Below are positions 7,881 through 64,000 of a stretch of 64,000 nucleotides of DNA, piece by piece; the stretch's first letter is position 1; every line of letters begins with the position of its first letter. Under the pieces are notes generated by a model that had not been told where the DNA came from, ran no database searches, and saw only the letters and a list, made by a program, of their open reading frames with translations. The stretch is from Candidatus Omnitrophota bacterium (GTDB lineage Bacteria > Omnitrophota > Gorgyraeia > Gygaellales > Profunditerraquicolaceae). The stretch lies in the NCBI GenBank assembly GCA_026387455.1, contig JAPLLR010000046.1, positions 4,921 through 68,920 on the forward strand. The letters run 5' to 3'. Made by a program: the position numbers and the translations under genes.

Positions 7881-7889
7881 TTGGGTGTA

Positions 7890-8139: not shown

Positions 8140-11100
8140 ATGCCTAATCAAAAGCCACGGACAGAAGAAGAGAATTCGCTAGAGCAACCCGAGACCCAGG
8201 TGAAATTTGTTTCCAAGTTCCAGGCCTGGATCCGCGTGGTTGCTTTTATTGTTGTAGCGGTCTTTCTTCCGGAGCAGGTAGCCCAGGCAGCGCAGTATGA
8301 TTGGCGCGTGCTCTGGAACAAGCCCGGCGTGACAACTTTTACCCCCAACTATCTTGCTAATCCTGATTCTCTGCGCAATCTGGATATCCCCCTAACCATA
8401 AAGAAGATCCTCAGTGACATCGCCAATAAGCAAGTCAATGCCATAAAGCTTTCTGACAATCTTACCATTGAGCTGGATAGGCCTCTAGAAATGTCCACTG
8501 TGCGCATTGAAGAGATCTTCAACTGGCTCAAGGGCAGGCCTTGCGGCTCAAAAGCGCTTTATGATTTCTTAAGCTTTAAGGGTATCCAAGCCTCTGAGCA
8601 AGATATCGCAGTAATGGCTTTGACCGTGGATATCTTAAATAACGTGGTTAAGCCTGAAGGAAACCCCGAAATTATTCTCAACTCTCTATATGCTTTGTCT
8701 AAGGCTTCTGAGTTCTTCGGCCTTAAGACTTATCCGGTTAAGCTTGCAATAGGAGAGCCTGTTGCTTCCTTAGCGCCATTCTTGGCCCATGTCAACGGCA
8801 ATCACTATGTCTTAGTTACGCGCATAGCAAATGGCAAAGTATATTTCAGCGATCTGCATAAAGAAGAATTTTTGGCCCTAGATAAATTTGCCGAGAAGTT
8901 TACCGGCAATGCTTTAGTCACTCAGCTGATTGATGGCGTTACTGAGCTTAGCGTTAAAGAAGCGATGCAGGTGATGGGGGCAAATGACGATGATTTTGTT
9001 GGGCCTCCAGCTCCAGCGCCCGCTCCACCTAGCTCAGACTTTGTTGGGCCTCCAGCTCCTGCACCAGCTCCTGCACCTGCATCTGCTCCTGCGGCTCCAA
9101 GCTCGGCTTCGTTAAACTCAGGCTATCAGCCGGGCGGCTATAATGGTAATACTTGGGTTCCTCCTTCTGTTGCTACTGCTGATGGCGGTAGGGTTGCTGT
9201 AGGGCCGGTTAGTTCAGGGATAGCCGAAGCCTATAACGCAGCAAATGCAGCGCCTTCACTATCTGCGCCGGCTCCATATTTAGATCGTTTTCAAAGTTCT
9301 GATCTAGGCACAGCTCCTACACCAAAATATGTGGCTCCTTCAGTATCTGCGCCGGCTCCTGTCGCTCCAGCGGCAATAAAGTCTGCTGATTATGCAAGAC
9401 GGCAACAAGCCGAAAACGCATTTAGCTATAGTCCCGGAGCAGGCACTAGTGATTATTATAAAGTCCCGGTAATAGACCAAGAGACAGGGCAGACCATAAG
9501 AACAGAATTAGTGAACAAGCACATTACAGATAGTGCTGAATCTCGCAGAGTCGCTGAAGGATTATTAAAAGATCAGGGCATACAGGTCCAGGGATCTACC
9601 TTGACAACCCTTAAACCTTTAGAACAGCTTGGCACCGCACCTCTTCTCCCGGATAAAATTTTATTTGCAGGAGATGGTAAAACGCCATTTTTGTCATCAC
9701 TCCCTTCAGCGACTAACGGTATTCCTAATTTGGTGGAGCACCAGATCTTGGTGGTGGCTGAAAAAGGAACTCTTCATTATAATATGTATGTTCCTCAAGC
9801 AAACGCTGATATTGCGCCTATCTATGTAGGAGATCATGCTCAGCTGAAAGGGACTCCAGGTTGTCCGAGTGGAATTTGTATGGATGCTGGCTGGAAAGGT
9901 GATACTGCAGCTCGTAATGATGGTGCAGCTTTTGTAGATATTAAAACATGGACGGGATGGCATACAACTACAGGCGAAGTCGCACCCTATGAGCAATTTA
10001 CTAATGGGGTATTTCATATTGGTAAAACTGCGTCAGAGCCACATTTCTCAGGAAACCCTATTGAGAGAGTAATTTTGCAAGATAACGTTGCAGTAGGCAT
10101 TAGTACGCTAGGCCAAACTTCTGCTTATCAACAGCCGGTTGTACTAACTGATGGTACGAAAGTTTCTGCTGAAGGCTGGAGAAATAATTATACGGTTAAT
10201 GTAGTCAAACCGGTTGTCCAGGTAGGACCGGATTTGAAAAACACAAGATATGATGGTTTCTATGTATCGCATGATCAAGCTGGGAATTCTGTTGGAGTAA
10301 GCCCCCTGATGACTAGAGTGGACATAATGGCAGATGTAAACCAGAGGAAAAGTCAGGGGGAGCTATACACACCAACCATGCCCGGAGATAATGTCATAGT
10401 TTTCGCCGGAGATGTAAATTCTTATATTTCAACCGGGGCTGCGATGACTAAAGTTGAGGCATTTGCAAGAGTTCCTAAGATTACCAATGATTTTTATAAT
10501 TATCAGTGGGGCAATAATTTTTATCAGCCTAAAGAATTAGTTGGTTCAGCAGAAAATTATGCTACCGGGCAGGTAATACCTTTTACTAACCCTCAGGAAT
10601 TTATTGATAATACTCATATTAGAATTGCCGCTCCTTTGCAGGATGGAGTTAGCGCTACCGGAGAAATAACCAGTATGTCCGGCTGGAAACAGGATGGTTT
10701 TATGATCCCGCTTGCTCCTTTTACCTCGGCCGACGGGATGGGTTACACAAAGAACGAGCTCACCGGAAAAGTAAAATCGTTCAAGATAGAGGGGGTTGAT
10801 TTTAAAGTTGATTATGCCGCCAAGCAGCCCGATATATTTAATCAGAAGTTATCGGTATATGGCACCGGAGAAGCATTCGCGGTTTTACCGCCTTATAAAA
10901 CGGCGACTGATGGAGGGGCGAGCATCTATATGACAGGGACTAAGGTTGAATTAGGTGTGGGATATAAGGCGGGAGATTCAATAGCAGTTATTTCAACTCA
11001 AGGTATTCAAGGAGGCCGGATAGAATTTCTCGTGCCGAATTTAGATATTAATAAGAATATTCAAGATCAGATAAAAGATGCTACCCAGCCTATGGTTATA

Positions 11101-14100: not shown

Positions 14101-17100
14101 TATTACATTATTGACCCGGCAATGAATGTAGCCGGCAGAGGGGAAGTCGTTAATAAATGGAGAGATAGCGTAGCCCAGCAAACAGTCAGCATTTTAGGAG
14201 ATAAGTCGTCTACTTCAGTCACCTTTGATGAATTTGCTAATCAATCTACAGCAGTAGGGCTTGCAGAGAAATCCAATCCCCAAGGCTATATAGATAGTGC
14301 TGTAGCAAGGCGCATGGCTCAAAAGCAGACGGATGTTTCTTATAATGCAGATGGAACAGTTTCCGGATACCAGACGCTTAAATTTTCCGCGGACCACAAT
14401 GTTGCCACAGAAGTACAGGGTTTTGTATCCGGCACCACCTATGCTGCCAGATACGGGAATATGAAGCCCGGAGAAAGACATGTGCCGATTGTATATACAA
14501 ATGAAAACGGAGAGTATGACAATGATAGCGGATTCCGGGCGCCTGCATCGCGCACCATTGAAACGGATATTTACGGTACCCTTAAAACTGATCAGGGAAT
14601 TATTTCTGTGGGCCGCCCAGAAAACACCTTCAAGAGTCTGGCGATTGAAGGTAGGGTTCCTGATGGAACAGGTTCGACCAAAGGCGGAGTGATCGCCCAC
14701 GATATTTATTACGAGGCGATGAAAAAAGGCGATGGCTTTGAGTTTGTCGGTGGCACTATGGGTCAGGCGGATTTAGTGAAGATATTAAAAGGTGGAAATA
14801 AAGAGTCTGCCCCCAACATCTTAAATTCTGCGACTACTAATTTGAAAGAAACACAAGGCCTCCTTACAACAAAAAATAATGAACCGTTGCATTTAATGAT
14901 GGCTTCCGGGCAGTTCAATGATATTTCCTTTACTACAGGCGATCAGGACGGCAAACCGCAAAGTAGCACTAATCCAACCGCAGGCACATCCGCAGAAGCA
15001 GATGCCAAAAATAAGAGGCCATTGAATCCTGAATTAGACGCTAACAAGGCGTTTACCGGCAGGGTCACCGGTGAGCAGCACCTTAAATTTATGCCTTCTT
15101 TCAGCGGGGCCGGCGGAAGGGTGGAAGGGGATCTTTCTGACGTGGTAATAAGTACCACAGGGTTTAAACAGGCTGAGGTTAAGGAGCAAAACGGCAAGAC
15201 AGTGCTCAAAGATGCAAGCCAGCAGTTTACCCAGGTGCCTCTATTCTATGACCGCGAGAATCCGCAGGTGACCAAGAGGTTGTTTACCAGCACCCTAACC
15301 CCCGAGAAAAAGGATGGGGGTTTAAAGATTGAATTAAATGCCCAGGGCAATGTTATTACTGATCTGGCAGGCATAGCCGTAGGCGATGCTGCCAAGGAAC
15401 AAAGAGTACGCTCAAGCGAATTTTTGGCTGTGAAAGAAAAGGACCATGCGGGAACTAATCCTGCTGCCGACGGTGAAAAGATACAGGTGCGCCTGAGAGA
15501 TTTCTACACCGGCGGGCTGGTTCAGAAGAATGGTTCTGTGGTTTCTATTTTTGGGGAAACCGGAAAGCCGCTAGAAGAAGTGGACCCGATTGCAAAAGAT
15601 GCGGTAAGTAATTATCCGCTCACTAGGTCTTATATAGAACTGTCAGATCAGGACCTTGGCGAGTATAGCGGCACCCGGATAGCCGGGGGGATCAGGACCG
15701 CAGGTGGTGAGTCGATATTTTTCCATAATATTAGTGATCCGGAGACATTTGCCAGAGCAGAGCAAGCGGTTAAGCCGGTGCAAAAGATGACTGCCGAAGA
15801 AAATAAGGCTCTTGCCGAGAAGGTGGGCTTGGACCCTAAGGAGTTTAATAAGCCCGGCAATCAGCTGACCCCAGAGCAGATAGAAACGTTGGCCGGAAAA
15901 AGAAATATCTATAGCCTTAACCAGCTTTCTGCGGAACAGATAGATAAAGTAAGAGGAGAATTAAGCCGCTTAGGCCAAGACAGTCAGAAAAAAGATGTGC
16001 AAGCCCAAGCCGGAGATTTAGCCAGACAATTACAACAAATCAAGGCAGGCAGTATTACCCCGGAGCAGGCAGTATTCCTCTTTGGCGCGCAGGATTTGTT
16101 AAACCGCAACTTTACGCCATCCCGCCATCTCAATGTTTCTAAGAATGATTCAGGCGCAGTGCATGCCAAAGGAGAGCAGATACTTGATGCGACATTCTCA
16201 TCTAATATGGCTAATGAAGGCGGAACTATGAGCGCCAATATTACTAATATGGGAGTGAGCCTTTCCGAGAATTTGTCTGAAGGGGTCAATACCACTTCAG
16301 TGTTGGCGAACAGGCAGACTATGAAAGAGCTAGCTAAGAATGTTGGTGCTACGTATATAGGAAAGCCGCTGGATCAGATCGACGAAAGAGGAGAGGTGGT
16401 TTACGGAAAAGGATTAAATTCCGGACATTTAGGGCTAAGATTATCTGACAATTTTTATCAGGAAATTGCGGTGAACAAAGAAGGAAATGTGGTGACTGAA
16501 GGCGCAGGGATATTCGCTGGTACAAAAGAAAAGCCAGTATGGTTTTCTTATTTTGAAGGTGCCAAGGCGATCGGAGATAAGAAGGCAGAAGCCACTACGC
16601 TAGAGATGAATAATTTCCGGTATTCAGGTGTTCTTAAAGAAGGAGTAGTGGTGGCAAAGGAGGGATATGTAGATTCTCTCAAAGAAGTAAACGGCGGGAA
16701 GATAGAGCTTGGTAAAGACGGCCATGATCCGAGTAAGGGCCTGCGCACTGCCGGAGGCAAAGAGGTATTCTTTACTTCTTTGTCCACCCCTGAGGCTTTT
16801 GGCGGCGATCCGCAGGCGATGAGGAAGCAGGCGGCTTTAGAGAATGCAAGGAGCTTAAGGGCAGCAGGGAAAAGTGATGCGGAAATCGCCAAGATGCTTA
16901 AGGTTGAGCAGAAGTATAGCAAAGAGGATGCTGAACAGATTATCCGTGAATCAAAGGTAAAGCCTAATGTGGTCGCAGAAATCAAGAAAGAAGACTTAAG
17001 GAAGCTTGAGGTGTCTCCTGATTTCAAGGCAACAGGAGTTCAGGTATTGCTGCCTTCTTTCTCAGCAAACCTAATGCAGGAAGGTGGAAAGATTACCGCA

Positions 17101-20100
17101 GACTTAAGAAAGACCGCCATATCTTTTGATAACCGCATGGTCGGCCAGGGGCTGGCCACCACTTCTGTGATAAAGGATGGTGAAGTTGCTTATGTGAAGG
17201 GTATATATGCGCCATGGAGTATGGGTAAGGTTGATTTCAGGTTAGTAATTGATGACAATGGAAACATGGTTACTAAGGGTGGCGGGGTATTCGCCGGCAC
17301 AGCTGAAAACCCCATAGAATATGCCTATCAGGACGCTTTCCGCGCCAAGGGAGAGAATTTGACTGAAGCCTACCAGCTGCCTGAGCCCATTAAATTAAAT
17401 AATTATTACTATGATGCAATACTCGGCGAGGGCGGTCTAAGTATCCAGAGTGGCAAAGTAGAAAGCATAGAAGTGGCCGGTAAGGAGATAAAGCTTAAAG
17501 GCCATGATCTAGCAAAAGGCATGATTACTGACAGTAGTACTCCTACCTACTTATTCTTGGGCAGGGTTTCCCGCTTTGACAATAAAGGCAGGCCGCAGAA
17601 AGAGGAAAAACAAAGCTCTACCGAAGCATCGCAAACATGGGATTTTTCTGCCGGCAAGGAAGCTCCTGCTTTTGATCTATCCGGATCTTTCGGCGGGACT
17701 TACGGCAACGTACCTTTTATGGACATAGTAAACAAAGGGATTAATGATACCTTAGATAAAGCGGCGCCTCAAGATAGAAAAAAATTCGTAGATGATACGC
17801 TTGCGGCGCAGACTCAGCGCGCAGAGGCAAAGGGAGATGTTCAGGCGATGCTAAAGGCAGAAATGGAAAAGGCAAGCAGAAAAGATAATCTGGGTATTGT
17901 CTTGTCCGGAGATGATTTCAAGGCCAGAGGCTCGCAGAAGCTGGACTTTACACCCACCAGCAACCTCTTTACTGACGGCGGCGGAACGATCTCAAGAGAC
18001 ATTACTTATAACAACTACACCCTGGTTGTAGATAGTAAGCAGCTGGTGCCTATGGTTACTGACGGAAATGACACCAAAGGTATCTTCCAGAATAAGGCAT
18101 CAGGCAGGATTTCTATCGCAGGCGGTAAATTGGGCGGGCAGGTGCTTACTCCTGGCGCAGGCGTATACGCAGGAACTAATGAGCGCAGAATAAATGGCAC
18201 ATACCAGGATGGAATATTAAATTCTATCTATGAAGCCTCTGGCCCGGTTCCAACTCTCTTAAAGAATTATTATTATACAGCAGAGGTCAAGGATAGCGAT
18301 AGTGACGGCATAGGCGATTCCCTGAATCTTTTGGGGGGAAAAGCGCAGAATATAAATTTTGTGGGCAGGGATTTATTGCCTAATGGAGATTATGAGCTCA
18401 ATAAATCCGGGTGGGCTATTTTCGGCGACTCCAAGGGCAAGTTAGCCCGGATCGGCAGTTTTTCACCTTCGCTTACTCTCTTTAGCGAGCGCGGGCAAAT
18501 TAACTTAGATAAAGATACGATTTTAGGTTCTTTATCCAAAGATGACACAACCTTAAAACTCATGACCACTATCGATGTCGCAAAGTATAGGAGCCTGCTT
18601 GCGGCTGAAGGGTACAGAACAGAAATAAAGAGAAATGATCTTTCCGGAATAAATTATATCCTTATTTACGATGAAAAGAATAGGGAGGTTGGCAGCGCAG
18701 CAGTTAGCGATGACGGCCTGAGGGTGAAGGGGGGAGTAATTCCCATCGCCAGAGACACTGAATCAGACACTATTTTCCGCGTGTACATGTATACCGCTGT
18801 TAAAGATGATAAGATTTACTTGAAACATGACGCATGGAATATCGAACAAGGCGTTGATGACGGCAAGACATTCAATCAGCTAGCTCGAGACGATAACGTG
18901 AAATGGGGACACAGGATGTTTTTGAGAAGTGACGAGACTGAGGGCGCGGACATGGCTGTGGCGCGGATGATGTATGCGCATGGTGTTGGTTCAAGGGGCG
19001 TCTGGTTTAATGATTATGATTCAAGGGATAAGCTGCTCAAAAAGTTTGACAGCGGAGAATATAACTGGTTTAAGATGCAGGATAATTTACTTACCCAAGA
19101 AAAATACACAGGTACAGCCGTCAGGAATTTCTACAAGACTTGGGGTTTTGTCCGCAATTTTCTGCCTGCTGCTCCTAGCGTTGAAGCCAGAGCGGACCAG
19201 AGTAATGGCGGGATGGTTTTGGAAGCAGTGGGAGATGCTGCTTTGATTGCCGGGCCGTTACTCAAAGGAATCGGCGTTGGCGCAAAGGGTCTGCAACTTA
19301 TCGGTGGGACAGCAAACGGTTCCTCTAGGGTAATGAGGGTAATCAACGCAGCAGCCAAATTGGAAGGAATGAGCACTCTTACCAAGGGAAGTGTGCAACT
19401 TGCCACCAAAGGATCAGCCAGTTCTTCTAGAATAATAAGCGGCCTAAGCAAGGGACTTCTTTGGGAGGGCAGGATTGGAAAAGCGGCGCAAGTAGCACAA
19501 GGTACCACTCGCGTTGCGAGCGCTGCCCAGAATCTCTCCTGGGGTTCCAGGGCCTTAAGAGGCGGCTGGAATAGCGGAAAATTTCTGGCTGGTCGCGTTG
19601 CGCCGCGCGTCGGCCTTTACGGCACATTAGGCGGTATCAACAGCTACAATTCCATGTCTGCTGAACAGAAGGATTGGTATTCTAGCGGTAGAGCAGCAGA
19701 AGCGTCGAAGGATTCACAGAATCATGCTATTGCTTTAAGGGATACCTTTAGAAGCTGGGCAGCCAACTGGGAAGTGGGGCTGGATGGTGCCATAGGAAAT
19801 AAGGCAGATGCTGATAAGGCAGATAGTGTTTCCAAAGGCCTGCAGCAGAACGCTTCCGTAATAACGCAGAATAATTCCAAAGCGATTAAAGAAGCAGTCC
19901 CGGGCCTAGGGGGAAAAATCCTGGCGATGCCGATGGATGTTGAGCAGACCCTTTTGGGTTTTGCCGGTTTTCCTTCGAATGCCTCCAGGAATATGGGCAA
20001 ATACGGCATAGCACAGGGTTCAGCAATGAGTGGTTGGAGCATGTACAGCTATCTTTCCTCTGTTGCGGAATCAGGAATATATGCATTGACTTCCCTCGAC

Positions 20101-23100
20101 GGCTATTTTAGGAATTCGGTTTCAGACTCCTACTATCAGGGCTCTATCACTGGGGGATGGGAATCTTTATTAGGTGACGGATTCAGCAATTTTGTCAATC
20201 CTGAAAAGAGCAAAGACACCAATCCTATAACCAATCCCGAGCAGTATGCGGGATTGAGTTATTTCGCAACGCAGATGTGGTTATTGGGCGGTTACAAAGA
20301 AGGTGCAGGCCTAAAGAAAGGCGAAGCCAGAGGCACTCCGCTTTTAGATACATATCAAACCCTGACAGCCATAGAGCTTACACCAATGAATCTTATGCTT
20401 TTCCCCGGAAATGAGCTTGGTAGGCAGGTGGGCATGGTAAAAGAAGCGGCGACAGCAGGTAGAACTGAAGGCGATGCTTCTTCTTTCCGCGGCAGGTTAA
20501 ATCAGCTCGGAAACGCAAATGGCGGCCCCGGGCATCAGTTTGTGGAAAATCTTATTTCTGCAGCCCTACCTTTACGTTCTCCGCAAGCAACTCCTTCGAA
20601 TAAAAGTGAAGTTGCTCCTGTGCAATCTTCTACGGAAGCGGGAGGAACAGTAAGGTTAAATGAAAATGATGTAGTAGGCGATAGGGGCAGAAGAGCGGGG
20701 GGTAGCGATGTGAAGGCTCCTGCTTCTCAGCCTGAAATGTCACGTCCTAACTTCTTTCAGCGTTGGAGTCAGCGTAGTTATCTAAAGCAAGAAGGATACT
20801 CTTTTTCAGAAAGAAGAGCGATTGCAGATGGGCGTCTTGCGCCTACAGATAGAAGTGGAAATGTCAGGGCAGACGTAGTAAATCGTTTTAATGAGATTGG
20901 CGCTACTCCGACTTGGGTTGGAAGATCGCTTAATCGGGCAAGAGAAGCCACCACCACTTGGATTAAGAATCAGATAGACGCCAGCCCCACAGTGAACTGG
21001 TTTAAGAACGATGCCTTTGATATGTCTAAGTCTCCTGTGGTCGATGCCGGCAAAAAAGTAGCTGGCGCAGTAGCTGATGCAGGAAGGGCCACCGCAGACT
21101 GGGCTAAGAATGACGCACTGGATATGTCTAAGTCTCAGGTAGTCAACTGGGCCAAAGACACCAGCGTCGGCAAATGGCTGGCTAACGATGCCTTTGATAT
21201 GAATAAATCTCTTGTGGTCAACTGGGCAAAGAATGACGCCGCTCCTTGGGTCAAGAATCAGATAAATACTAGCCCCACAGTGAACTGGTTCAAGAATGAC
21301 GCCTTTGATATGTCTAAGTCTCGGGTTGTCAACTGGGCAAAGAACACTGCTCTTCCCAATATCGCTGCCTCTGCCAATCCTAAGAACTGGACCACCTATA
21401 ATTGGGCTAAGACAGCTGCTATCTGGGCAAGAGACACCGCCACCCCCTGGATTAAGAATCAGATAAATACCAGCCCCACAGTGAACTGGTTCAAGAATGT
21501 TTGGCAGCTTGCTACTTCCTCGCAGTATCGTTTCCTCAATAGACGCGGTATTAAAGATCCAACTACGAGAGCTGCAATCATCAGGGACGGATATTCAGCT
21601 CCGGAATCTCCCAATAAGACCTTATTTTATGAGATGCGCGCTGATCAATATTTAAAAGACAATGGTTTCTTCTTTAGAAGGCAAAGAACAGCGATTAGGC
21701 AAGGGCGTTTAAAATCTAATGATTTGAGTCTTAGCCGTGATTTTAGCGAAATTCGTAAGGGGCGCGTAGTTTATGATGAGGCGGCCCAAAATGATGTTTT
21801 ATCATCCGGCCGCAATGTACATCTGTCGATGGCTGGTGAATGGGCAGCGGATATAGGCGGAAGGAAGAAGGGTGATGGCGGAAGATCGTTAGAAGCCAAG
21901 ATTCTAAGAGTAGAAAAAGGCGAAGACGGCGCGACTCGCATTTGGTTGGATACAGAGGAGATCTTCGGTGGCCGCGGCGCTACCTCAAGGGACGGAAAGA
22001 CCATATACTTCAGCCGCAACGCGCACGATGGGACAGATGTGCATGAAAGCACAGAAGCAGCCTTGCTATCTAAAGGCATATCCCCGTCAGCGTCACATAA
22101 AATAGCGGCAGAGGCTGAGGTAAGGTATTTAGCGCGTACGCTCGGCTATGACTTAAATGATCCCAGCCAAAGAATGCTAGTAGAGGAAATGGCAAGGAGC
22201 CATTCTGATGCCACTAAGGTCGCTAATAAGGAAAGGGCTCCGCCAGCGCCAAAATCGCCTTCCCATGTAGTTGTTGCTCCCGCAGAAGGACCGGGTTTTA
22301 GAGCTGCTGTTGGAGAAGGCGAAAGTATCAGCGATGTTGCCATAAGAGCTGGCCGCAGGCCAGTAGCTATGCTTACCGAAGGCACACCCAGCGATGCCTC
22401 TCGTTCCAGAACCGCAGCCAATCCCGAATCCGAAACCGTATCTAAATCTCAAGAAGCAATTAAACAAGATAAGCTGACCAGAGAGGCCCGGATATCTGAA
22501 TTCAGGCGGCAGCAGGAAGAAAGACAGGAAATTGAAAGAGCCCAAAATATACTTGGGAGTAAGGATCTTAAGCCGCAATTTATCTTTGCCCCTGAGACTG
22601 GCAGGCGCGTATTCATCGCTACCGCTGATGGAAAGGTGGCATTAGTAAAACATGGAGAAGAGGCGCCGGATATATCCCGCAGACCCATTGCCCTTCTTCC
22701 TGCACCTAAACCTGCGATCGAAGTAAAATCTGAATCCAAATCTGCACCCGCGCAATCTAAAGAAGTTGCGGAATCCAAAGCCCAGCCTGATGATAGAGTG
22801 TCTGTGTCTAACGAAGCCAGGCTTAGGAATGAACAGGCCAATCAGGAAAAGAAGGCTGAGTTTAAAGCAAAACAGGAGAAACTTGAAAGAGTAGCAAAGA
22901 TTGTTTCTGAGACGCCTAATACCGATAAAGCCAAGCTAAGAGTGGCTAAGGAAGTAGTTAAAGATAGAAGCTTACCTAAGAGGGAGCGTTTAGCAGAGGC
23001 AGATAAACTTATAGAAGCAGCAAAGCCATATGCACCCAAGAAAGAAGCTGCTAAGCCAGAAGTCAAAGAGCCGGTTTCTCAGTTGGTTGAATTAGGCGAT

Positions 23101-50100: not shown

Positions 50101-53100
50101 CGTAAGCAATTAGAATCCAGTCTGGAAGCTTTAAAGACAGATATCAAGGCACTGATTTATATCCTTAAGGTCGTAGCGCCTTCCATGAGAAGCAGGATTA
50201 ATGCGACAGCTTTAGGTTTGAAGAGCCGGATTCAGGAGCTCCTGCCAGTTGCTGCGGTTGAGCAGATCAATCCCGAGGCGATTAGGTTAAGAGAGGTGTT
50301 TGATCAATTGGCTCAGGATAGATCAGCAAAAGACATAACTAAGGAGCAGGTAGATGTTTTAAGCGTTATAGCAAGCATCCTCGGGGAGAGCATAAATCAA
50401 TCACTTTATGTCAAGGATGCTGAAAAGCATGATATCGCAGGGCTTAGGATTCAGTTAGGATTGTTGCAGCTTGCTGAAAACGCGGATAGTGACACCGGCT
50501 TCATTAATGGTTTGAATCCCGCGCAATACTGGACAGATTCACTAGAGAAGGGTTATCAGGAGGCAAGGGATCATGTGCGTTTAGGTGATAATCCTTTCTA
50601 TGAAGATATGTACAGAAGCGAACTTGAGGCCAGGGAAAGCAGACTTCAGACGCAGAAGGTTCATAAGCAGGTTGAGGCGTTGGTTAAGGATGTCACTGAT
50701 ACCAAGGCTAGGCTCGATCGGTTTACGGCGAATAAGGCTGCATATTCCGATGCCCAGGCTCGCATCAATAAAGAGAAGGAAAGATTAGATAATCTTTACA
50801 AAGAGCTGAATAAGGTAAGCAATGATGAGGATAAGCTTGTTGAGAGCGCGGTATACTTAAGGCATCTGGCTGAGGCGACTAAAGAGCTGTGCTTACGCAT
50901 TATCGAGTTGAGGAAGGTGGATAGAGAGCTCAATGATATCGAGGGCAGAAAAGGTGCCGCAGAAACGATGAAGAACTGGATGCTGTGGCAGGTAAAAGCT
51001 GGTCTGTCGCGGGATTGGGATATGTATCTGATCTGCATGGATCTGGGGAATAAGTTAGCTGTTAAGCTGGATGAGTTTGATAAGACTCGGGAAGCTTTAG
51101 CAGCCTTGGAGAAGGAAAGAGAAGAATTATCCAAAAAACGTGATGAGTTGAACGCAGAGCAAAAGCTTAGGGATGTTAAGGGGCTCCAGGAGCAGGAGGA
51201 TTTCATCATCAGCAGCCTGGAAAAAGAGAGAGCTGCATTCTTAGCTAAGGTTGAAGAGTTATATCAATTAGGTCTGCAGGCAGCAGATTTAAGGACACAG
51301 ATCAGCCGTGCGAACGCTTCCATTACTCGTTTTGCCTCTAAGATGCAGGCCCAGGCGAGTCCGGAAGATATTAAGCAGCAGCAGGAAGAGCTGAAATCCC
51401 TGCAGGATAAGCGTAAGCTCCTTGAGGATAAGTTAGTTGAATTGGAAAAGCAGATGGCAGCGCGTAATCAAGAGCTAAGGAATACCGTGGAGATGCTTAA
51501 GATCGCAAAGGCTATTGAGGGTTATAGCGCAGCCTTAATTAAAATGAAACAAGCCTTGGATGCCACAACTGACAAAAAAGAAAAGCGTGAAGAAGAAAAG
51601 AGGATTAATAAATTAAGCTTGAATATCCAGGCCCTGGTCAAGGCTAAAGATGATACTACTAAGACACTGTTTGAAAGGATAACTGTCTGTCAGAAGATAC
51701 AGAATAGTATTGAAGTAAATCTCAAGCAGAATGATGAAGGTGCTGAGCTTGAGAAGCAGTTACGCAAGGTAAATATAAGGCTTGAAGAATTAAGGAAGAG
51801 TATCGCTGTCAAGGAGCAGGAGGTCAGGAATGCGCTAGATAAGATAGAGTTGATCACAGGCGCTGATGCCGTAAGGACGCTGTACAGCCAGGAGAATACA
51901 TTAAGAGAAGAGCTGAATGAGCGCTTAAGCGCCTTGAAAGAATTAAAGGATAAAGATAGCGCTAAGAGAGGCCTAAGGCAGGATAAAGATGATATCTTAG
52001 GCAGGAAGACAGCCTCTAACTATAGCGATGACCTGATCGGCCAGATCCATACTTTGAAGATGACTGATCTTACTGATGAAGAGAAGGCTGTCTTGGAAGA
52101 TATCGAGGCTTGGCAGAGGGAAAATCAACAGGGGGTATTCATGGTTTCAGTCTTGGATAATTTGATTGCTTCTTCTGAGGCGCTTAAGGAAGAAGTGGAT
52201 ACCGATACCTTCAGGAATAATATCATCGAGAGATTGACCGGATGCGAAGCAGAGTGGTTGATTTACCTGAATGCCCAGGTAAAAGAACTGCTTAAGAAAG
52301 AAGCTCCGTTATTAGCATTTGGAGATAAGAAGGCATTCTATAGCTGGCTGAAGAGCGAATTCCCGAGGGTGCATGACAAGTATGACCTCAAAGACACTTC
52401 TCTTTATAAAAAGATACTTTATATAGTGGGTGAGCTTTTTGAGATAAATCATCGCGATATCGGTGATCCGATAGCCGGCAAGGAGAGTTCCGACATACAG
52501 GCCGCGGCTGAATCCAGGGTTAATGCCGAAAAAGATAAGACAAATTTAAGCGGCACATTAGCCAGCGTGAACAAGGATGCCCTGACCTTAAGCGTTTACG
52601 CATCCTTACGTACGACTAAGGATGATAGCGCAGAGAAATCCGTATTAAAGACAGGCGTAAGATTAGGGGCTAATCTCGGTAAACTTATAGAGAATGATGA
52701 GTATATAAATAATTCAGACTTGGAGAAGATATTCACCGGTATTTACCGTGCCTATGAACAGATATCCGCCAGCGCGCAGAATATCATGGTTACCTACGAA
52801 AGAGTGTATACCTTAAAACAAAAGCTTAATGATTTGGGTGGCAACGTGGATGTAGAATACTTACGTATAAAAGCTGATTTAAGGCAGGCGCAGAGGGATT
52901 TAGCCAGGGCATTGGAACTTGAAGGCCGCGTAGACATCAGCTTAGAGGCTAGCCCGGAGAAATTGCAGCAGGTAGTGTTGGATAAAGTTGAGGCTGCTAT
53001 ACACGAAGCGATCAAAACCCAGCTAGCGGATATTGAAGGCGTTGACCCGGGAATGCTGGCTAGACTGTTAGAGAGAGTTTCAGTGTATGTGACAATAGGT

Positions 53101-56100
53101 TATGAAGCTACTAGCCTTAAGGAGACCGGAGCTGAAACCCAGAAGAGCAATAAATATCCCTTAAGCTTCATGCTGCATTTGGTTATCTGGGATGGCGCAA
53201 GCGGAGTGAATAAGGAGATTAAAGAGACGCAGAAAAAGCTTTATGAGTATAAGAAGGCGATGATCCTGGATGACTTAGAGGATAGAATCAAAAATGCGGA
53301 TAGCGTCTGGGAGATGGCTAGAAATATGCGCTATAAAGAGATGGTCACCAGGAAGTCTGGTAACATTGAGCAGGCCATATTCGGCGAAAGGATGAAGAAA
53401 CAAGCAAAGGCCGAAGAGAAGAAGGCTGAGCCCGCGTTTGAATTTGAGACGGAAAATGTTTATCCGGGCATAGATGAGCCGGTTGCCGAAGTAAGCAGCC
53501 AGATTGATAGCCAGCCGCTTGATGTAAATATCCATATGCCTTTCGGCCAGATTCAGGAGACGGCTAGCTTAGTCAGGCCCGAAGACAGGGATGAGGCATT
53601 CAATAAAGCGTTATGTGAGGCCATACTTTATAACGAAATCACCTACGGCAATAAGGAATTATATATTAATGCCTATGTGTATTTGATGCGTAATGTGCAC
53701 ATCTGGCCGGAAGATTTGACTACAGAAAAAGTCCTATGCATGATGGATTCTAGGCTCAGGGTTAGGTTCGAGAAATATCTCCCGGAGATCATGGAGAATT
53801 TAAGGAAGGCGCGTAATGAGCATAGCAGTAATCTTTTGAAGTGCCTCATTGATGAAGAAGATAGCATTATGATAGAGCTGGGTAAGCATCCGCAGCCGCA
53901 ATTGCGCAAGACTTTAGAGCAGAAATTGGCCAGGGTCAGGGAAGAGAATAAGCTCGTCATCGAAAGAGAGGAAGTTTCTGCGGATAGCTTAAATGGCGCT
54001 ATAGAGGAAAGATTAAAAGAGATCTATGATGGCCAGGAAGGAGAACTTTTCATCAAGTTAAATGAAGATTACCTGGCTAGCGAGTTGGAAAAGAAAAGTA
54101 GGAATGTTTCAGCGGATAGCCTGATTGATGCTGCGCGCAGACAGGAGGCAGAATATTTATCCATGCTGATCGAGGCCAGGATTGAATCTCAACCTCGTAT
54201 CCGTCTGGTCGAGCTGTTGGACAAGAGCCAAGAGCTGCACGCCAAGACAACTGCCTTAATAGCTGCAATCAAAGAAAAGCAAAGAGTACCTTCCGCAGTG
54301 CTTCCTGAAGCGACAAAGTCAGGTTTTGAAGTGGCTACGCAAGAAGATGGAAAAGCAGAAAAGGCCCTGAATAAGCTGGTCGAGAAATTGAATGACCAGG
54401 ATTGGAGCGTCTTATTAGAAGATCAGATCTTAGGCAGCGTGCTTAAGGATATACGCGTACATGAACCCAGATTCCTAGGTTTTCTCCCATTTTGGGACAG
54501 CGATTTCAAGAACGCCGTGCAGGATGCCATTTCTAAGGTTAAGGACGCCAAGGTCAGCGAAGAAGAGATCCTGGATAAATTGGCAGAGGGAATGCGCGCG
54601 TATATCCAGAAGAAAGACGCAGACGGCACTCTTGGAGAACTTATCGTTAGAAGTGCAGACTTGAAGGGATTAAAGATAGACGGCCTTGCTGCCGAGGAAT
54701 TAAGCGAGATGATCGATGCAATCTTCTCCGGAAAATCCGATTCCATGTACGCTTCCAGCTTTGTCAGCGCCATGGAAGAGCAGTTGGAGAAGGCCAAACA
54801 TTCCAAAGATCAGGTGGTTGCTAACTTGAAAAAAGCGATCATCTCCTTCCAGCTCGACGAACTTATCAGTAAGATAAGGGAAGAGCTACCCATAGCCATA
54901 GCAACCAAGAAAGCCGCTTTGGAGGTTCTGAATTGGCTGAAAGATAAAGAAGCTAAAGGTTTGCCTGAATATCTTACGGCAAATAGAAGATATCTGGATA
55001 CTGTAGAGTATAATCAGTTCCAGGCGACATTAAACACTTTTAAGACATGGTACGTAAACAAGGAAAAATTAAGCCAGGCTTTTGACAATGCCGCTTCAGG
55101 CTCTGGTACTCCGCCGCCGCCTCCTGAGTTGGAAGGCGCAGTAAGATCATTTATCGAAGGCACCTATGATACGAAGGCTGGAGAGTTTAACGGTGGAGAG
55201 TATAGCCTTTATCTTAATTACGCCCGTACAGAGAATAAATTATCGGAATTAGAGATAAGGCGTAGTGAACTGGAAAGAGCCGGTATTGATTTATCTTTGA
55301 TCAACCTGGTTTTAGCCACTTCCAAGATGACCTTCTGGACCGCCGAAGAGAGGTCCGATTACTTCCAGAATTACAAGGCTAAGGCCAAAGAAGTAAGTGA
55401 AGACAGCATTGAATTATTGAAGACCCAGCTTTACTTAAAGGCCCTGCGCCAGGCTCTGGTTTATAAGGCAGACGAGATCAGCAGCGATGACCAGAAAGAG
55501 TATTTTCTGGGAGATAGCTTAAGCAAATATTCCAGGGATGGAGCTGGCAAGTCATTAAAAACTTTGCGTGAAAGTATAGACGGACTAAAAGATGCCGATG
55601 ATATTAAGGCCGCGATCAAGTATTATCAGGAGAAGAGCGTTTCTCTTAACAGGAAGGCGATATTGGATGCCTTAGATACCTACAGGGCATACGTACAGTT
55701 CCTGCGCGAAAACAAGCAGGATATCTCTATAAACCTGGCCACCAATTATATCGTAATGGGGGTTATGAACGCCATTTACTTGATACAGGTATTGACCAGC
55801 GATCTTGGGTCCCCCAACGCTACCAAGATCGATGCGATGCGCAAGAAGATGCTTCCTGAGTTCAAGCTCTTAGGTGCGCAGCTTTACGGCCAGTCTGCTA
55901 TGCAGATCAACGGAAAGTCCGTGAACATCGCCAGGCAGAATTATTATGTGAACCCGAGGAATGCATTCATCTTCCACGAGGTTGCGGATTACACCGGGAA
56001 CCATTACATCGAACAATTAAAACGCAATATCGTATTCCGCGAACAGACTGATAATAGCTCTACATGGATGGAGGTCAGGTATACTGACCTGGATCTATCT

Positions 56101-59100: not shown

Positions 59101-62100
59101 GGCCTTGAAAGAGGAAAGATGATCCAGCTCATCCTGGTCCATGAATTAGGCGCGCGTTTCGGATTTGCCCACGAATCCAACATCAGCCTTGAGGAGATCT
59201 ACAAAGGTTATATGGGCTGGGGCTCTGAACAGGCTAAGGCCGGCGAGGAATTGCTGAACAGATTAGACAATTTATTCCAGAAGACCCACACTATCGTAGA
59301 TTACAATTATGACGGTGATGGTACAGACCTTGCAGCCGCTGATGCTGCAGGCGACGCAGAGCCGTTGGCTCTGGATCCGTTTGCTCCCGGGACTACCGAA
59401 TACGAGTTGGTGCACGAGAGCGCGTTCCTGAGTCTTTTTGGCGTGAGCAGCTATGATGACTGGGTTGCATCTTTTGGAGAGGATTCCGCTGCCCTTGACT
59501 GGGTAGGCGGCAGGGCTCAGGAAGTAAGCAGTAATTATGGAGGCAGCGTCAGCGCTTATATTAATGATCTTACGGTCGTGCAGTCGTTATCTACGGCTTT
59601 AGGTAGCGCTTCTATGGGAGCAAAGACGATTTTCGAAGGCGCTTATCAGGTGAGCATTACTCAGCTTACTTGGCATACTACTGCATATATGACCGAATTG
59701 TTTAGTGTTGTGGGCAGTTCTGATTGGGAAGGGGTAACACAGTTCATTGATTTCTTAGAGAAAGTCGCTAACTTTGACGCAGCTCTTAAGTCAAGCTCCT
59801 ATAGCACTCAGATAGATGCCGATATCTTATACAGCGCTTTTGGCGTGCGTTTCTTAGATGGCATCAGTAAGGCAGAGCTTGGCATAATCGGAGACGAACA
59901 GTACGGTATACTTTATGACGAGCAGGGTAATGTCAGGGATGCCAGCGACGCTATTAGTTTCTATGAGTCGGTGTATCTGTTCTACGCCGCTTGGCAGTCC
60001 AGTTCTGTCTCAAGCCAGCTTAACTCTACCATATTTGTACCTGCTTTCGGTCTGGATATTTCTAACGGCATACAGGCCGCTGACCTGGTCATCTTCGGCA
60101 ACCAACATTACGGGCTGCTTTACGATGAGTCCGGCAACGCTAGAGACGCCAATCAAGCCATAGATTTCTATACCAAGGTATATCAGTTCTACGCCGCCTG
60201 GCAGTCCAGTTCTGTCTCAAGCCAGATTAATTCCACGATTTTTATCTCGGCCTTTGGCCTGGATCTTTCTAACGGCATACAGATAGCGGATTTGTTAGTG
60301 TTCGGTAACCAGCAATACGGATTACTGTATGATGAGTCCAACAACGTTAGAGACGCCAATCAAGCTATAGATTTCTATACCAAGGTGTATCAGTTCTACG
60401 CCGCCTGGCAGTCAAGCTCTGTCTCAAGCCAGATTAATTCCACGATCTTTATCCCAGCTTTCAGCCTGGATCTTTCCAATGGTATACAGATAGCGGACCT
60501 GCTGGCATTCGGTAATCAGCAGCAGGGTTTACTCTATGACGAGCAAGGTAATTCTAGAAGCGCTAGTTCCGCTATTGAATTCTATGGGGCAGTATATCAG
60601 TTCTACGCCGCCTGGCAGTCCAGCTCTATGGCTAGTCAGGTCAACGCTACTTTATTCATTCCTGCTTTCGGTCTGGATCTTTCTAACGGAATCCAGGTTT
60701 CAGATTTGCTCGCGTTCGGCAACACGCAGTATGGCTTGCTTTATGATGAACAGGGCCACGTCAGAAGCGCAGATGCGGCTTTAGATTTCTATATTTCCGT
60801 TTATCAGTTCTACGCCGCATGGCAGTCTAACTCCTTTGCCAGCCAGATAAACTCCAGCATATTCATCTCTGTCTTCGGCCTGGATCTTTCTAACGGTATC
60901 CAGGAAGCTGATTTAATCATATTCGGCAACACGAATTATGGATTGCTCTTTGATGAGCAGGGCAATTCCAGGAATCCCAACGACGCCATAGATTTCTATG
61001 AGGCGGTGTATCAGTTCTACGTCGCTTGGCAGTCTAGCACTTACGCCGTAGCCATCAATACCCTGATCTTTAACTCCGCTTTTGCTGGGCTGGATCTCTC
61101 AGATGGTATTCAGATGGCGGACCTTTCGGCATTTGGTAACAGGAATTACGGCATACTGTATGATCAGGCAGGAAATTTAAAAGACCCTAATGCCGCGATC
61201 GATTTCTACGAGGCAGTAGTAGAGTTCTACAACGCCTGGAATGCCTCTAGCCTGAAGAATGACATCAACAGCATCATCCTCGGCCCTGTCTACGGCATCA
61301 ACTTAAGCGACGGTATCAGCGAGGCAGAGCTTGCCGCCTTCGGACGCAACGACCAGACGACCGGACATTACAATCCGCTTTATGACGATCAGGGCAATCT
61401 CAGGGATCCGCAGGACACCCTGGACTTCTTCGCGGCAGTGGTCAGCTTCTACAACGCCTGGAACGCCTCTAGCCTGAAGAACGACATCAACAATATTATT
61501 TTTATTCCTGCATACGGTTTGAATCTGGCAGATGGGTTAAGCGAAAGTGAGCTGAGCATAATGGGCGATGGAACTTTAGGCATACTTTATGAAACCGCCG
61601 ACCACTTAAGGGATGTAGATAGGGCCATGGAGTTCTATGAGGCCATAATCGTCTTCTATCAGGCCTGGAACGCTTCGCCTTTAAGGAATGAGATCAATAC
61701 ATTGATCCTGATCAACGCCTATGGTATCGACTTATCTGACGGCGCTATACAGTTAAGCGAATTGAGGGCTTTGGGTATCTACGAGTCTATTCCCAACGCT
61801 CCGCTTCTATATGACGAGAACGGGCAATTAAGGGACGCCGCTGACACAATGGATTTCTTTGAGGCGGTCGTGGGCTTCTATCAGGCTTGGAATACTTCGT
61901 CTTTAAGGAATGAGATAAATTCCCTCATCTTAATATCCGTCTACGGCATAGACTTATCCGACGGCATTAATATTTCCGATATAAACGCCTTCGGCAATAA
62001 AGACCCGAATAAGCCGTATATGTTATATGACCAGGACGGCAACCTGAATAACGCATCTGACATCATCGATTTCTTTGAACTGGTGGTTGAGTTCTATCAG

Positions 62101-64000: not shown

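Follow-up and report, generated by a model that had tools for sequence, protein, structure and literature searches.

One of the questions raised by this locus is whether a reading frame that stays open for most of a 64,000-nt stretch of DNA (the window, hereafter) can be a single real gene and, if so, what decides when such a costly gene is expressed. Giant ORFs have been described in Omnitrophota (Seymour et al., 2023, PMC10066038), and since the giant genes of this phylum are already catalogued in thousands, one more truncated example changes little. The giant gene in the window is itself of a known kind. What is new is a conserved putative c-di-GMP riboswitch that precedes it and most of its relatives; a leader riboswitch is not mentioned in the giant-gene papers bioRxiv 10.1101/2023.11.21.568195, bioRxiv 10.64898/2026.06.07.730766 and PMC10066038. 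Together with a conserved protein head, this leader makes it testable when and why so costly a gene is expressed. All of the features described below lie on the + strand.

The giant coding frame and its conserved head

The frame opens with an ATG at 8140-8142, directly preceded by an in-frame TAA at 8137-8139 and a further one at 8134, and contains no stop over 8140-64000 (55,861 nt, 18,620 full codons), where it leaves the 3' end of the window; what is seen is the 5' part of an ORF of at least 18,620 codons. The 178 stops of this same frame are all upstream of 8140, and each of the other five frames has 725-1,815 stops, with a longest open stretch of 1.6 kb. Even at the lowest off-frame stop density (3.4% of codons), the chance of an open run of 18,620 codons is about e^-640. 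A coding signature was found in all 18 consecutive 3-kb tiles (position-1 purine 0.62-0.72, position-1 G 0.33-0.40 and GC1 higher than GC2) and, as it is alike in every tile, it indicates that the frame is coding from end to end. The stop count of all frames bears out what the sequence-only reading had claimed, a stop-free frame from ATG 8140 to the end of the window, and we conclude that 8140-64000 is a single real giant coding frame. It was absent from the supplied ORF list because that list leaves out ORFs that run past the end of the sequence.

The first part of the protein is a conserved N-terminal head (aa 1-290; 8140-9009), which was delimited by Pfam, alignment and AF2/Foldseek and consists of a signal segment followed by a C39-type cysteine peptidase domain. 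The hydrophobic signal segment spans aa 23-43 and an invariant A-Q-A follows at aa 48-50. Pfam Peptidase_C39 matches the head with 32.6 bits (cut-off 22), and both Cys135 (nt 8542-8544) and His222 (nt 8803-8805) are invariant in 40 aligned sequences. The AF2 model of the head has a pLDDT of 77 and the papain-like fold of the C39 family; its best Foldseek matches are the peptidase domains of LahT, PCAT1 and ComA (E 5e-6 to 1e-3, TM 0.65-0.72 on target). Neither an ABC transporter domain nor a Walker A motif was found after the C39 domain by Pfam and motif search, so the protein is not a PCAT. Since the signal segment precedes it, the C39 domain is probably located outside the cytoplasm.

Homologues of the head were found as ORFs in 138 GTDB species genomes, at 49-65% identity. 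Among the protein homologues with a source name, 38 of 39 are titled Candidatus Omnitrophota/Omnitrophica; the best 80 genome loci mostly carry the same titles and roughly a fifth of them are automatically labelled 'uncultured Planctomycetales'. The Omnitrophota origin that had been guessed earlier is thus supported by the names of the homologues. As in the window, the homologous ORFs are long: 75 of the 80 run off the available sequence and 32 show no stop over about 3,500 aa. The body is almost sequence-unique: once aa 1-290 are set aside, its matches to the initial ~3,600 aa of the 80 homologues come down to two short stretches. Protein-pattern scans of genome and metagenome contig collections found no relatives of the last 300 aa of the window.

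West-Roberts et al. (2023, bioRxiv 10.1101/2023.11.21.568195) described giant proteins of Omnitrophota that begin with a signal peptide and a C39 domain, and Nielsen and Lui (2026, bioRxiv 10.64898/2026.06.07.730766) a 24-protein PF03412 architecture cluster. The kinship with these published genes that had been proposed for this locus holds, as the same signal peptide and C39 domain are found here. In the literature, giants are defined by a length of at least 10,000 aa (10.64898/2026.06.07.730766) or, for 46 'giant' genes, of more than 30,000 aa (10.1101/2023.11.21.568195); the ORF, with at least 18,620 codons before it leaves the window, lies above the 10-kAA limit. Their published traits are a signal peptide with C39 or S8, numerous TM helices and type II/IV secretion/pilus genes nearby (10.1101/2023.11.21.568195; 10.64898/2026.06.07.730766).

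Genes of the latter type are found here too. Two T2SSE-family secretion/pilus ATPase genes lie at 1820-4322, one at 1820-2893 (357 aa; Pfam T2SSE E 2e-47) and the other at 2994-4322 (442 aa; E 2e-31). Their best NCBIfam models are TadA-family, VirB11/TrbB and FlaI, all under the equivalog cut-offs, which agrees with the Tad/T2SS-type ATPases named in the sequence-only reading. No GspD, GspF or pilin genes were found in the 8 kb upstream of the ORF. Conserved upstream synteny was also considered and rejected: in the 80 loci, the 10 kb upstream contain hardly any counterpart of the ATPases, a TPR gene or the ORF at 6393-7637.

A conserved aptamer-terminator pair in the leader

Between these upstream genes and the ORF, transcription is predicted to start just 5' of an aptamer, from a putative sigma-70-like promoter at 7853-7880 (TTGACA, a 16-nt spacer, TATACT and a TG extension). 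With 11 of 12 consensus matches it is the best + strand site within 4300-8400, a candidate by consensus alone. The aptamer (7893-8001) is of the c-di-GMP-I type (GEMM-I clan), as identified by Rfam RF03167 (64.7 bits against a gathering score of 59, E 5e-13, model positions 1-80 of 80) and by covariation; a second Rfam family of the same clan (CL00126) also reaches its own gathering score in the window. When the two-hairpin fold was laid on 20 homologous leaders, 94.6% of the cells pair, with changes on both sides at 8 pairs (38 cells). None of 500 shuffles reach the observed pairing, and slid controls drop to 26-46%. We take the ligand-contact positions to be G20, A47 and C92 in Vc2 numbering, and their mapping onto the aptamer is our own; the window has G, A and C at the mapped positions, as do most of the family aptamers (G in 70, A in 79 and C in 77 of 79).

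The aptamer runs directly into an intrinsic terminator (7988-8044), which was recognised from the MFE fold and from covariation. A 14-bp helix is formed by 7988-8001 with 8020-8033 and extended by the pair G7987-C8034, followed by TTTTATTTTT at 8035-8044; the 5' arm of this helix is the 3' strand of the aptamer. The hairpin is contained in the MFE fold of 7885-8145, and in the 20 leaders 86.5% of the cells pair, with covariation at one pair (CG in 10, UA in 5). Because the terminator shares the 3' strand of the aptamer, an ON switch is predicted, from this structural overlap only. We suggest that the leader element is a putative c-di-GMP-I-type riboswitch with a coupled expression platform.

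The same arrangement recurs in the homologous loci. An aptamer lies 41-211 nt (median 168) upstream of the ORF start in 66 of the 80 loci, and in a further 6 the ORF behind the aptamer is one that adjoins the giant ORF. Our own aptamer model gives 79 matches in 1.17 Mb, every one on the strand of the gene, and in 14 of 15 further loci, which were outside model building, Rfam too gives a match at or above the gathering score. A hairpin and a U-tract follow 70 of 73 aptamers. We lean slightly towards the view that the C39-headed giant genes of Omnitrophota constitute a phylum-wide c-di-GMP regulon, in which the ON riboswitch with its built-in terminator would hold back their expression as long as c-di-GMP is low; the rise that releases it would plausibly come with contact to a host or prey cell. 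If so, no cis-regulatory element of giant genes would have been described before this leader. As a practical matter, aptamer and head make up a compact signature of ~1 kb, by which the beginnings of giant genes can be recognised on fragmented contigs that cut the genes short.

Peptides of the V. archaeovorus giant protein were found to be up 3-fold in attached cells and a coat role was proposed for it (PMC10066038), whilst PilZ genes follow most giant genes and GGDEF domains occur in many giants (10.1101/2023.11.21.568195). Control by c-di-GMP would fit both the attached-cell rise and the PilZ/GGDEF context. The leader riboswitch ties in with these PilZ genes and GGDEF domains, and a regulon, if it exists, would directly explain the reported rise of the giant protein in attached cells.

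Repeats, membrane region and domains of the body

The body of the protein contains three sets of repeats. Divergent internal repeats with units of ~260 aa (25-33% identity) occupy aa 2,396-3,412 (15325-18375), in a region that is rich in Gly, Ser, Thr and Asn and nearly Cys-free. A second region (aa 4,256-5,555; 20905-24804) has short Trp-containing motifs and then charged ~200-aa repeats with 33-42% identity. Near the end of the window, 16 tandem copies of a 69-72-aa repeat (aa 17,182-18,310; 59683-63069) form a helical unit whose predicted fold, obtained from an alignment of five non-overlapping three-repeat rows, has no counterpart among solved structures; a Pfam 'Glyoxalase' match in these repeats has no passing stretch and is spurious. 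The repeats that had been named at 20.9-24.8 and 59.8-63.1 kb are indeed present (20.9-24.8 and 59.7-63.1 kb). Among direct repeats of at least 40 nt in the ORF no nucleotide copy pair exceeds 84% identity, the second region included, and this makes a collapse of the repeats in the assembly unlikely.

The membrane-spanning region extends over aa 6,735-12,401 (28342-45342). On a crude scale (Kyte-Doolittle, 19-residue window, threshold 1.8) the protein has 33 hydrophobic segments, of which 32 lie between aa 6,735 and about 12,400 and at least one is doubtful, in line with the many TM clusters noted earlier. A TM helix is improbable for the segment at aa 8,613, as this lies inside a conserved, soluble-looking module (aa 8,461-8,644; 33520-34071) with the motifs VIGHG, FRYSIHGG and KGYGKEAL. 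At least 20 homologues of this module were found (E 1e-10 to 1e-23), in proteins of 282-6,010 aa, and no Pfam family covers it. A GNAT acetyltransferase assignment was not adopted; its sole PDB match (2fck, at E 0.94) and one motif are a hint. Word-index homologue searches with aa 8,701-9,900 and aa 8,455-8,655 gave no match, while an index-free search found relatives of both regions, which indicates that word-index searching is insensitive for this protein.

Four further domains can be named in the membrane region. An M50 (site-2-protease)-like intramembrane metalloprotease segment at 30070-30495 was recognised from a sub-threshold match to Pfam Peptidase_M50 (24.7 bits, E 1.8e-5, cut-off 27.2), from the NCBIfam daptide intramembrane metalloprotease (E 8e-4) and from motifs read directly, HELGH at aa 7,318-7,322 and NLIPFALP...FDG at aa 7,425-7,452. 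An ICMT/PEMT-type membrane methyltransferase domain follows at aa ~8,017-8,112 (32188-32475), with 31 bits to Pfam ICMT (cut-off 24, E 3.5e-7) and E 4.5e-6 to NCBIfam isoprenylcysteine methyltransferase. A response-regulator receiver domain (42577-42984) matches Pfam Response_reg with 38.1 bits (cut-off 30.2) as well as receiver domains in the PDB; it is intact, with DD at aa 11,484-5, the acceptor Asp 11,547, Ser 11,581 and Lys 11,605 read directly.

The fourth, a Tse3/SLT-like lysozyme-fold muramidase domain at aa ~8,930-9,100 (34927-35439), was reached by profile and transitive searches. The region matches the homologue P0040 with E 8e-32, and P0040 passes Pfam T6SS_Tse3_cat (28.8 bits, cut-off 27); a joint profile of 13 sequences, the window among them, matches the P. 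aeruginosa Tse3 structures 3wa5, 4luq and 4m5e at E 2e-10. In these 13 sequences Glu8971, an Asp and an S-x-G-x-x-Q motif are invariant, and Glu8971 (nt 35050-35052), which aligns with the AEQ Glu of Tse3, is the predicted catalytic residue. The window's own sequence matches Pfam SLT and SLT_2 at E 0.09-0.16 only, so that the predicted assignment as a Tse3-like peptidoglycan muramidase is a transitive one for this sequence. Of the cell-wall-active domains that had been claimed, this single one was recovered and no others. The muramidase and the receiver are separated by six predicted segments, which would place both on the same side of the membrane; at least one of these predictions must be wrong.

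The membrane region is followed by a highly charged region of ~3,000 aa (45637-54639; 37-41% D/E/K/R/Q) that has no hydrophobic segments and is probably α-helical; its Pfam matches are of coiled-coil type only and all sub-threshold. MmeI_hel, BRE1, Lyx_isomer and Terminase_7 (Pfam) are likewise all sub-threshold and were set aside. A PDB sequence search of the whole 18,620 aa in four pieces matched the receiver domain alone.

A divergent SecA_DEAD or SecA preprotein-binding domain is reported for 'most', not all, giants (10.1101/2023.11.21.568195; 10.64898/2026.06.07.730766), and the sequence-only reading had placed a divergent SecA-like motor at this locus. Such a motor is undetectable in the 18,620 aa by Pfam, PDB and motif searches: SecA_DEAD has no match at E<=1 in two offset Pfam tilings, no SecA is among the PDB matches, and neither DExD nor a convincing Walker A is present. 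The sole SecA-like string, TGEGKD at aa 12,760, has a non-helicase context. A SecA-like domain could lie beyond nt 64000.

With respect to the published subtypes, 'archaeovorin' is defined by glycosyltransferases, glycosyl hydrolases, methyltransferases, peptidases, SAM enzymes and NUDIX together; of these traits, the 18,620 aa have a methyltransferase (ICMT) and peptidases (C39, M50-like) besides the muramidase, whereas no glycosyltransferase, NUDIX or radical-SAM domain was found in them by Pfam. The 'dockerin-type' subtype has many dockerin and TSP3 repeats; neither PF00404 nor PF18884 was found at E<=1, and the 69-aa repeat is a different helical unit.

Proposed working and comparison with known systems

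We consider it likely that the window holds the first 56 kb of a genuine Omnitrophota giant gene, with an envelope or contact protein under a c-di-GMP ON switch. The working that we infer as a whole would be as follows. Transcription from the promoter near 7853-7880 would enter the c-di-GMP-I-type aptamer. As long as no ligand is bound, the aptamer would give up its 3' strand to a downstream pairing that forms the terminator, and transcription would end before the ORF; with c-di-GMP bound, the aptamer would keep this strand, no terminator would form and the polymerase would enter the gene. A costly surface/membrane protein would in this way be expressed in the high-c-di-GMP (attached) state. 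Its family-defining head would carry a Sec-type signal segment and a C39-type cysteine peptidase that retains the Cys/His pair, followed by ~6,700 aa, nearly Cys-free and repeat-rich, that are probably exported. About 5,700 aa would then weave through the membrane, bearing the M50-like protease segment, the ICMT-like methyltransferase, the Tse3-like muramidase and a phospho-accepting receiver, and ~3,000 aa of charged and probably helical sequence and the array of 16 helical repeats would extend to near the end of the window. Such a protein may act at the cell envelope or at the site of contact with another cell. Peptidoglycan cleavage is predicted to be its only recognisable outward-directed activity, and the Tse3-like muramidase with its named catalytic Glu is a small, expressible piece with which the cell-wall-digestion idea can be tested.

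Other explanations should be weighed against this one. It is very improbable that the open frame is an assembly artefact, whether a chimeric contig that fuses pieces of several long genes in frame or a product of collapsed repeats. GC3 does move along the ORF from about 0.38 to about 0.56, metagenomes with Omnitrophota contain many giant genes, two regions of the ORF are repetitive, and the only independent assemblies found by exact-protein look-up, 2-5 kb Logan contigs (SRR20698647, SRR20698646), span 1549-6580, upstream of the ORF. Yet the stop-free run and the uniform coding signature speak against an artefact, and the low identity of the direct repeats leaves short reads without anything to collapse or cross-join on; moreover, in 32 independent assemblies the same head is likewise followed by an ORF that stays open past ~3,500 aa, and long reads have closed other giant genes of the phylum. 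Another possibility, which we hold only tentatively, is that the ORF is real and its product is a polyprotein, cut by its own C39 or M50-like protease or by host proteases into many smaller membrane and secreted proteins, so that no 18,000-aa machine exists. This was raised before by West-Roberts et al. (10.1101/2023.11.21.568195), and a conserved C39 peptidase, catalytically intact by its residues, at the very start, a site-2-protease-like segment in the membrane region and domains that are functionally unrelated to one another would all suit it; however, no cleavage sites can be named and the C39 domain may process other substrates.

Concerning the function, it is rather doubtful that the protein serves the cell's own envelope, as a coat, in remodelling of its own wall or in membrane organisation, instead of attaching to or digesting another cell. 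A role in surface contact would agree with c-di-GMP control, with the pilus-type ATPases next to the gene and with the published attached-cell increase (PMC10066038), and among solved structures the muramidase is closest to an interbacterial toxin, although none of these points is decisive. An envelope function would agree with the single wall-active domain, as Tse3/SLT-type enzymes also remodel the wall of the cell that makes them, with the housekeeping or signalling types of the ICMT-like, M50-like and receiver domains, with the coat proposed for the V. archaeovorus protein (PMC10066038) and with the Pfam tilings of the 18,620 aa, which turned up no family of adhesins, dockerins, lectins or glycoside hydrolases. 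As for the RNA, we find it unlikely that the element is a c-di-GMP-I look-alike for another ligand (e.g. 3',3'-cGAMP or an unknown dinucleotide) or an OFF switch. The best Rfam family is the variant RF03167 and not RF01051, and 9 of 79 aptamers have a base other than G at the position equated with G20; against this, G, A and C occupy the three contact positions in the window and in the majority of copies, another family of the clan also scores at gathering, and in one of the homologous loci (L042) the canonical family scores best. With the 3' strand of the aptamer taken up in the sole hairpin that has a U-tract, no separate anti-terminator remains for an OFF design.

Our preferred reading, an envelope or contact protein under a c-di-GMP ON switch, can be set beside four known systems. 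With the C39-headed giants of Omnitrophota the gene shares the phylum, the signal segment and C39 domain, many membrane segments, a mostly unannotatable and sequence-unique body, the receiver, methyltransferase and peptidase content, and type II/IV-type ATPase genes and a transposase in the flank; it differs in that SecA_DEAD, glycosyltransferase, NUDIX, GGDEF, dockerin and TSP3 were not detected in the 18,620 aa. Tse3, the muramidase toxin of P. aeruginosa type VI secretion (3wa5, 4luq, 4m5e), and the SLT lytic transglycosylases align in the motifs of the catalytic core (AAIILTE...D...S-x-G-x-x-Q; profile E 2e-10), with the Glu conserved. In contrast to Tse3, only a core of ~110 aa aligns, the domain lies between membrane segments of a giant protein and not in a secreted effector, and no immunity gene is visible here. 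The peptidase domains of PCAT-type ABC transporters (LahT, PCAT1, ComA; MEROPS C39) are alike in fold (Foldseek E 5e-6, TM about 0.7 on target), in Pfam family and in the conserved Cys/His pair, whereas the C39 domain here is not fused to an ABC transporter, is preceded by ~80 aa of extra conserved sequence and stands behind a signal segment, which makes it probably extracytoplasmic. Finally, the leader has the same two-hairpin fold, by covariation, as the c-di-GMP-I (GEMM-I) riboswitches (V. cholerae Vc2; RF01051, RF03167), with the GNRA tetraloop hairpin, the conserved GCAAA and CGCAAAGCC cores and a transcription-terminator expression platform, and several known examples likewise precede a gene for a surface/adhesion-type protein. 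It best matches the 'GGC' variant model RF03167, yet the varied position is A, and it differs from the known riboswitches in that the gene predicted to be controlled is at least 56 kb long and that one gene family is linked to the element across a whole phylum.

The giant reading frame and its conserved head

From ATG 8140 (+), which directly follows an in-frame TAA (8137-8139), the frame is open to the end of the 64,000-nt window without a single stop, which gives 55,861 nt or 18,620 full codons, while the remaining five frames contain 725-1,815 stops and are open for at most 1.6 kb at a time. The codon-position bias is the same in all 18 consecutive 3-kb tiles (purine at the first position 0.62-0.72, G at the first position 0.33-0.40), which indicates that the frame is coding over its whole length and not merely open. 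The sequence-only reading had proposed a single ORF of at least 18,620 codons leaving the window, and both the stop scan of all frames and the codon bias agree with it; its absence from the supplied ORF track is explained by the omission from that listing of ORFs that run off the sequence end. One question is whether repeats were collapsed in the assembly. The two repeat regions that had been pointed out in the ORF are both present but, since no nucleotide copies within them are more than 84% alike, collapse is unlikely. Exact matches to the window were found in two independent Logan assemblies, covering only 1549-6580, upstream of the ORF. Along the ORF, GC3 climbs from first-half values of ~0.35-0.48 to 0.52-0.56 close to the end of the window and GC2 drops, a drift that may reflect amino-acid content or a mosaic origin.

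A search with aa 1-1,200 matched 39 proteins, nearly all bearing Candidatus Omnitrophota or Omnitrophica names and all aligned only over the first ~280 aa (49-64% identity). A profile search with the head, aa 1-290, extended the family to 138 GTDB species genomes. The best 80 of the homologous loci are mostly titled Omnitrophota, with about one fifth carrying automatic "uncultured Planctomycetales" labels, which supports the earlier proposal of an Omnitrophota giant gene. The homologous ORF runs off the locus sequence in 75 of these 80 loci and is still open after ~3,500 aa in 32. The other five (L004, L010, L034, L063 and L082) contain complete ORFs of 407-3,551 aa with the same head, so that the head, and the riboswitch with it, is not restricted to giant proteins. 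Outside aa 1-290, just two short stretches match the first ~3,600 aa of the 80 homologues. The family can thus be described as a conserved head on a fast-changing body, a pattern reported for long Omnitrophota proteins at large (Nielsen and Lui, 2026; bioRxiv 10.64898/2026.06.07.730766).

The head begins with a hydrophobic (signal) segment (aa 23-43), followed by an invariant A-Q-A (aa 48-50) and a C39 peptidase domain above the Pfam threshold. Cys135 and His222 of this domain are invariant in 40 sequences, and its AlphaFold model (pLDDT 77) resembles the peptidase domains of LahT, PCAT1 and ComA. Immediately 3' of the head, a Pro-Ala linker (PAPAPAPP..., window 9001-9099) lies where the conserved part gives way to the variable one; tandem repeats of 12 and 18 nt (9050-9092) coincide with it.

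The leader riboswitch and terminator

Directly upstream of the giant ORF lie, in this order, a predicted strong promoter-like site (7853-7880, +), a full-length aptamer of the c-di-GMP-I clan (7893-8001, +; Rfam score 64.7 bits, threshold 59, E 5e-13) and an overlapping terminator, spanning 7853-8044 together. These elements did not figure in the sequence-only reading. The predicted aptamer fold is supported by covariation in an alignment of 20 homologous leaders, where 94.6% of cells pair and 38 cells changed on both sides; none of 500 shuffles reached this pairing and slid controls fell to 26-46%. A covariance model built from this alignment gave 79 matches in 1.17 Mb of loci, all 79 on the giant-gene strand, and Rfam's own models confirmed the aptamer in 14 of 15 loci outside the seed alignment. 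Of the 80 loci, two of which have too short upstream DNA to judge, 66 have the 3' end of the aptamer 41-211 nt upstream of the ORF start (median 168); six more carry the aptamer ahead of another ORF (391-2,378 aa), which in turn adjoins the giant one. The aptamer-terminator arrangement is thus kept before 66-72 of the 80 homologous ORFs.

In the terminator hairpin, 7988-8001 pairs with 8020-8033 (+), followed by the U-tract TTTTATTTTT, and the same arrangement of hairpin and U-tract follows 70 of 73 aptamers. The 3' strand that completes the second stem and the closing stem of the aptamer doubles as the 5' arm of the terminator hairpin, which makes aptamer and terminator mutually exclusive. 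Since the terminator shares this strand and no separate anti-terminator is visible in the leader, we infer an ON switch. Three nucleotides of the window aptamer map to what we take to be the ligand contacts of Vc2, the V. cholerae c-di-GMP-I riboswitch. They read G, A and C here, as in most family copies, which argues for c-di-GMP as the probable ligand, although the Rfam family that scores best is the "GGC" variant of c-di-GMP-I.

Extra c-di-GMP-type aptamers were seen before other genes in five of the homologous loci (L008:77-201, L061:2579-2667, L069:1398-1555, L023:5787-5936 and L046:862-952). Three of these precede ORFs of 2,089-2,504 aa, Gly/Ala-rich membrane proteins just upstream of the giant gene, and the switch may govern further large envelope proteins as well.

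Anatomy of the body and the upstream flank

No Pfam family was found in aa 300-6,700, a Gly-, Ser-, Thr- and Asn-rich region with only four or five cysteines and two divergent repeat sets. Many TM clusters had been proposed, and indeed 32 of the 33 hydrophobic segments fall in aa 6,735-12,400. The same region contains an M50-like segment (HELGH motif, below the Pfam cut-off), an ICMT-type methyltransferase domain (above it), a conserved module with no assigned function (aa 8,461-8,644), a lysozyme-fold, Tse3-like muramidase domain (aa ~8,930-9,100) and a receiver domain with all phospho-acceptor motifs. The muramidase assignment is based on transitive and profile matches: the region matches a homologous protein, P0040 (E 8e-32), which itself scores above the threshold of the Pfam Tse3 muramidase model, and a joint profile matches Tse3 crystal structures (E 2e-10). 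Glu8971, the predicted catalytic residue, is invariant. Of the cell-wall-active domains suggested earlier one therefore stands as a candidate, and the plural was overstated. Further on, aa 12,500-15,500 have 37-41% charged residues and no hydrophobic segments.

The suggested divergent SecA-like motor was not recovered anywhere in the 18,620 aa by two Pfam tilings at E<=1, a PDB search or a motif search, and neither were dockerin, TSP3, lectin, glycosyltransferase or NUDIX families detected there. The predicted hydrophobic segments between the muramidase-like and receiver domains are even in number, which cannot be right if one domain lies outside and the other inside. A hydropathy-scale TM segment (aa 8,613-8,631, window 33976-34032) falls within the conserved module, which looks soluble (motif KGYGKEALxLIMA), and probably represents a buried helix; this calls for caution in TM counts of such giant proteins. 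Cysteine is nearly absent from the first ~8,000 aa (five, including the catalytic Cys135) and from aa 17,000-18,620, and reaches 1-10 per 500 aa in the membrane and charged regions, a distribution that may separate exported from cytoplasmic parts.

The neighbouring Tad/T2SS-type ATPases proposed before are two T2SSE-family genes (1820-2893 and 2994-4322, both +), closest to TadA, VirB11/TrbB and FlaI models. Between them and the giant gene lie a Y1 transposase gene (4441-5058, +; IS200-like, REP-associated tyrosine transposase type), a TPR gene on the opposite strand (5068-6132) and a 414-aa ORF (6393-7637, +) that ends ~215 nt before the promoter-like site. Neither Pfam nor NCBIfam gives a family for this ORF, the 80 loci lack a counterpart, and it carries 69-nt and 102-nt tandem repeats (6551-7042, ~80% matches). 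At the 5' edge, an open ORF of at least 545 aa (3-1640, +) has no family match; a relative (27% identity) lies at 870-1868 of locus L082, just upstream of riboswitch and giant ORF. In L004, L023, L032, L033 and L036, transposase homologues (40-65% identity) lie at most 3.5 kb before the giant ORF. The gene neighbourhood seen in the window is not conserved in the 10 kb preceding the 80 homologous ORFs.

Proposed working and comparison with known giant genes

The working that we propose builds on the coding frame, the head with its intact C39 pair, the membrane-embedded enzyme-like domains, the muramidase-like domain with its Glu, the intact receiver and the aptamer-terminator pair. Termination in the leader would keep the giant gene off until c-di-GMP rises; the ligand-bound aptamer would then retain its strand, no terminator would form and the gene would be transcribed. 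The signal segment would take the first ~6,700 aa through the membrane; the middle part would serve as membrane anchor and carrier of envelope-directed activities, and the receiver domain, necessarily cytoplasmic, would tie the protein to a two-component signal. The target may be the wall of a prey or host or the cell's own envelope, and the product may act as a single polypeptide or be processed. Three published observations are in line with a c-di-GMP link: most giant genes are followed by PilZ genes, many of them contain GGDEF domains (West-Roberts et al., 2023; bioRxiv 10.1101/2023.11.21.568195), and the giant protein of V. archaeovorus is 3-fold more abundant in attached cells (Seymour et al., 2023; PMC10066038).

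The word "riboswitch" is absent from the main text of Seymour et al. (2023), West-Roberts et al. (2023) and Nielsen and Lui (2026), and full-text queries pairing it with either phylum name (Omnitrophota, Omnitrophica) turned up a single study, on an unrelated subject. In the literature searched, which covers subscription journals only in part, this conserved c-di-GMP leader is thus unreported. The class of gene itself is already known, and the giant ORF is therefore of moderate interest. ORFs > 20 kb occur in most genomes of several Omnitrophota classes (Seymour et al., 2023; PMC10066038); 46 genes > 90 kb were described, with N-terminal C39 domains, TM helices and type II secretion genes nearby (West-Roberts et al., 2023; bioRxiv 10.1101/2023.11.21.568195); and a catalogue of 5,761 proteins with 10,000 aa or more includes a C39 architecture cluster (Nielsen and Lui, 2026; bioRxiv 10.64898/2026.06.07.730766). 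The largest Omnitrophota examples mostly have a SecA-like domain, unlike the 18,620 aa in the window. The flank agrees with published descriptions in which secretion or pilus genes and mobile elements adjoin giant genes. The ORF at 8140-64000 is a further, truncated example of these described genes; what is usefully added to them here is the leader with its conserved riboswitch and terminator, together with the compact signature of the head.
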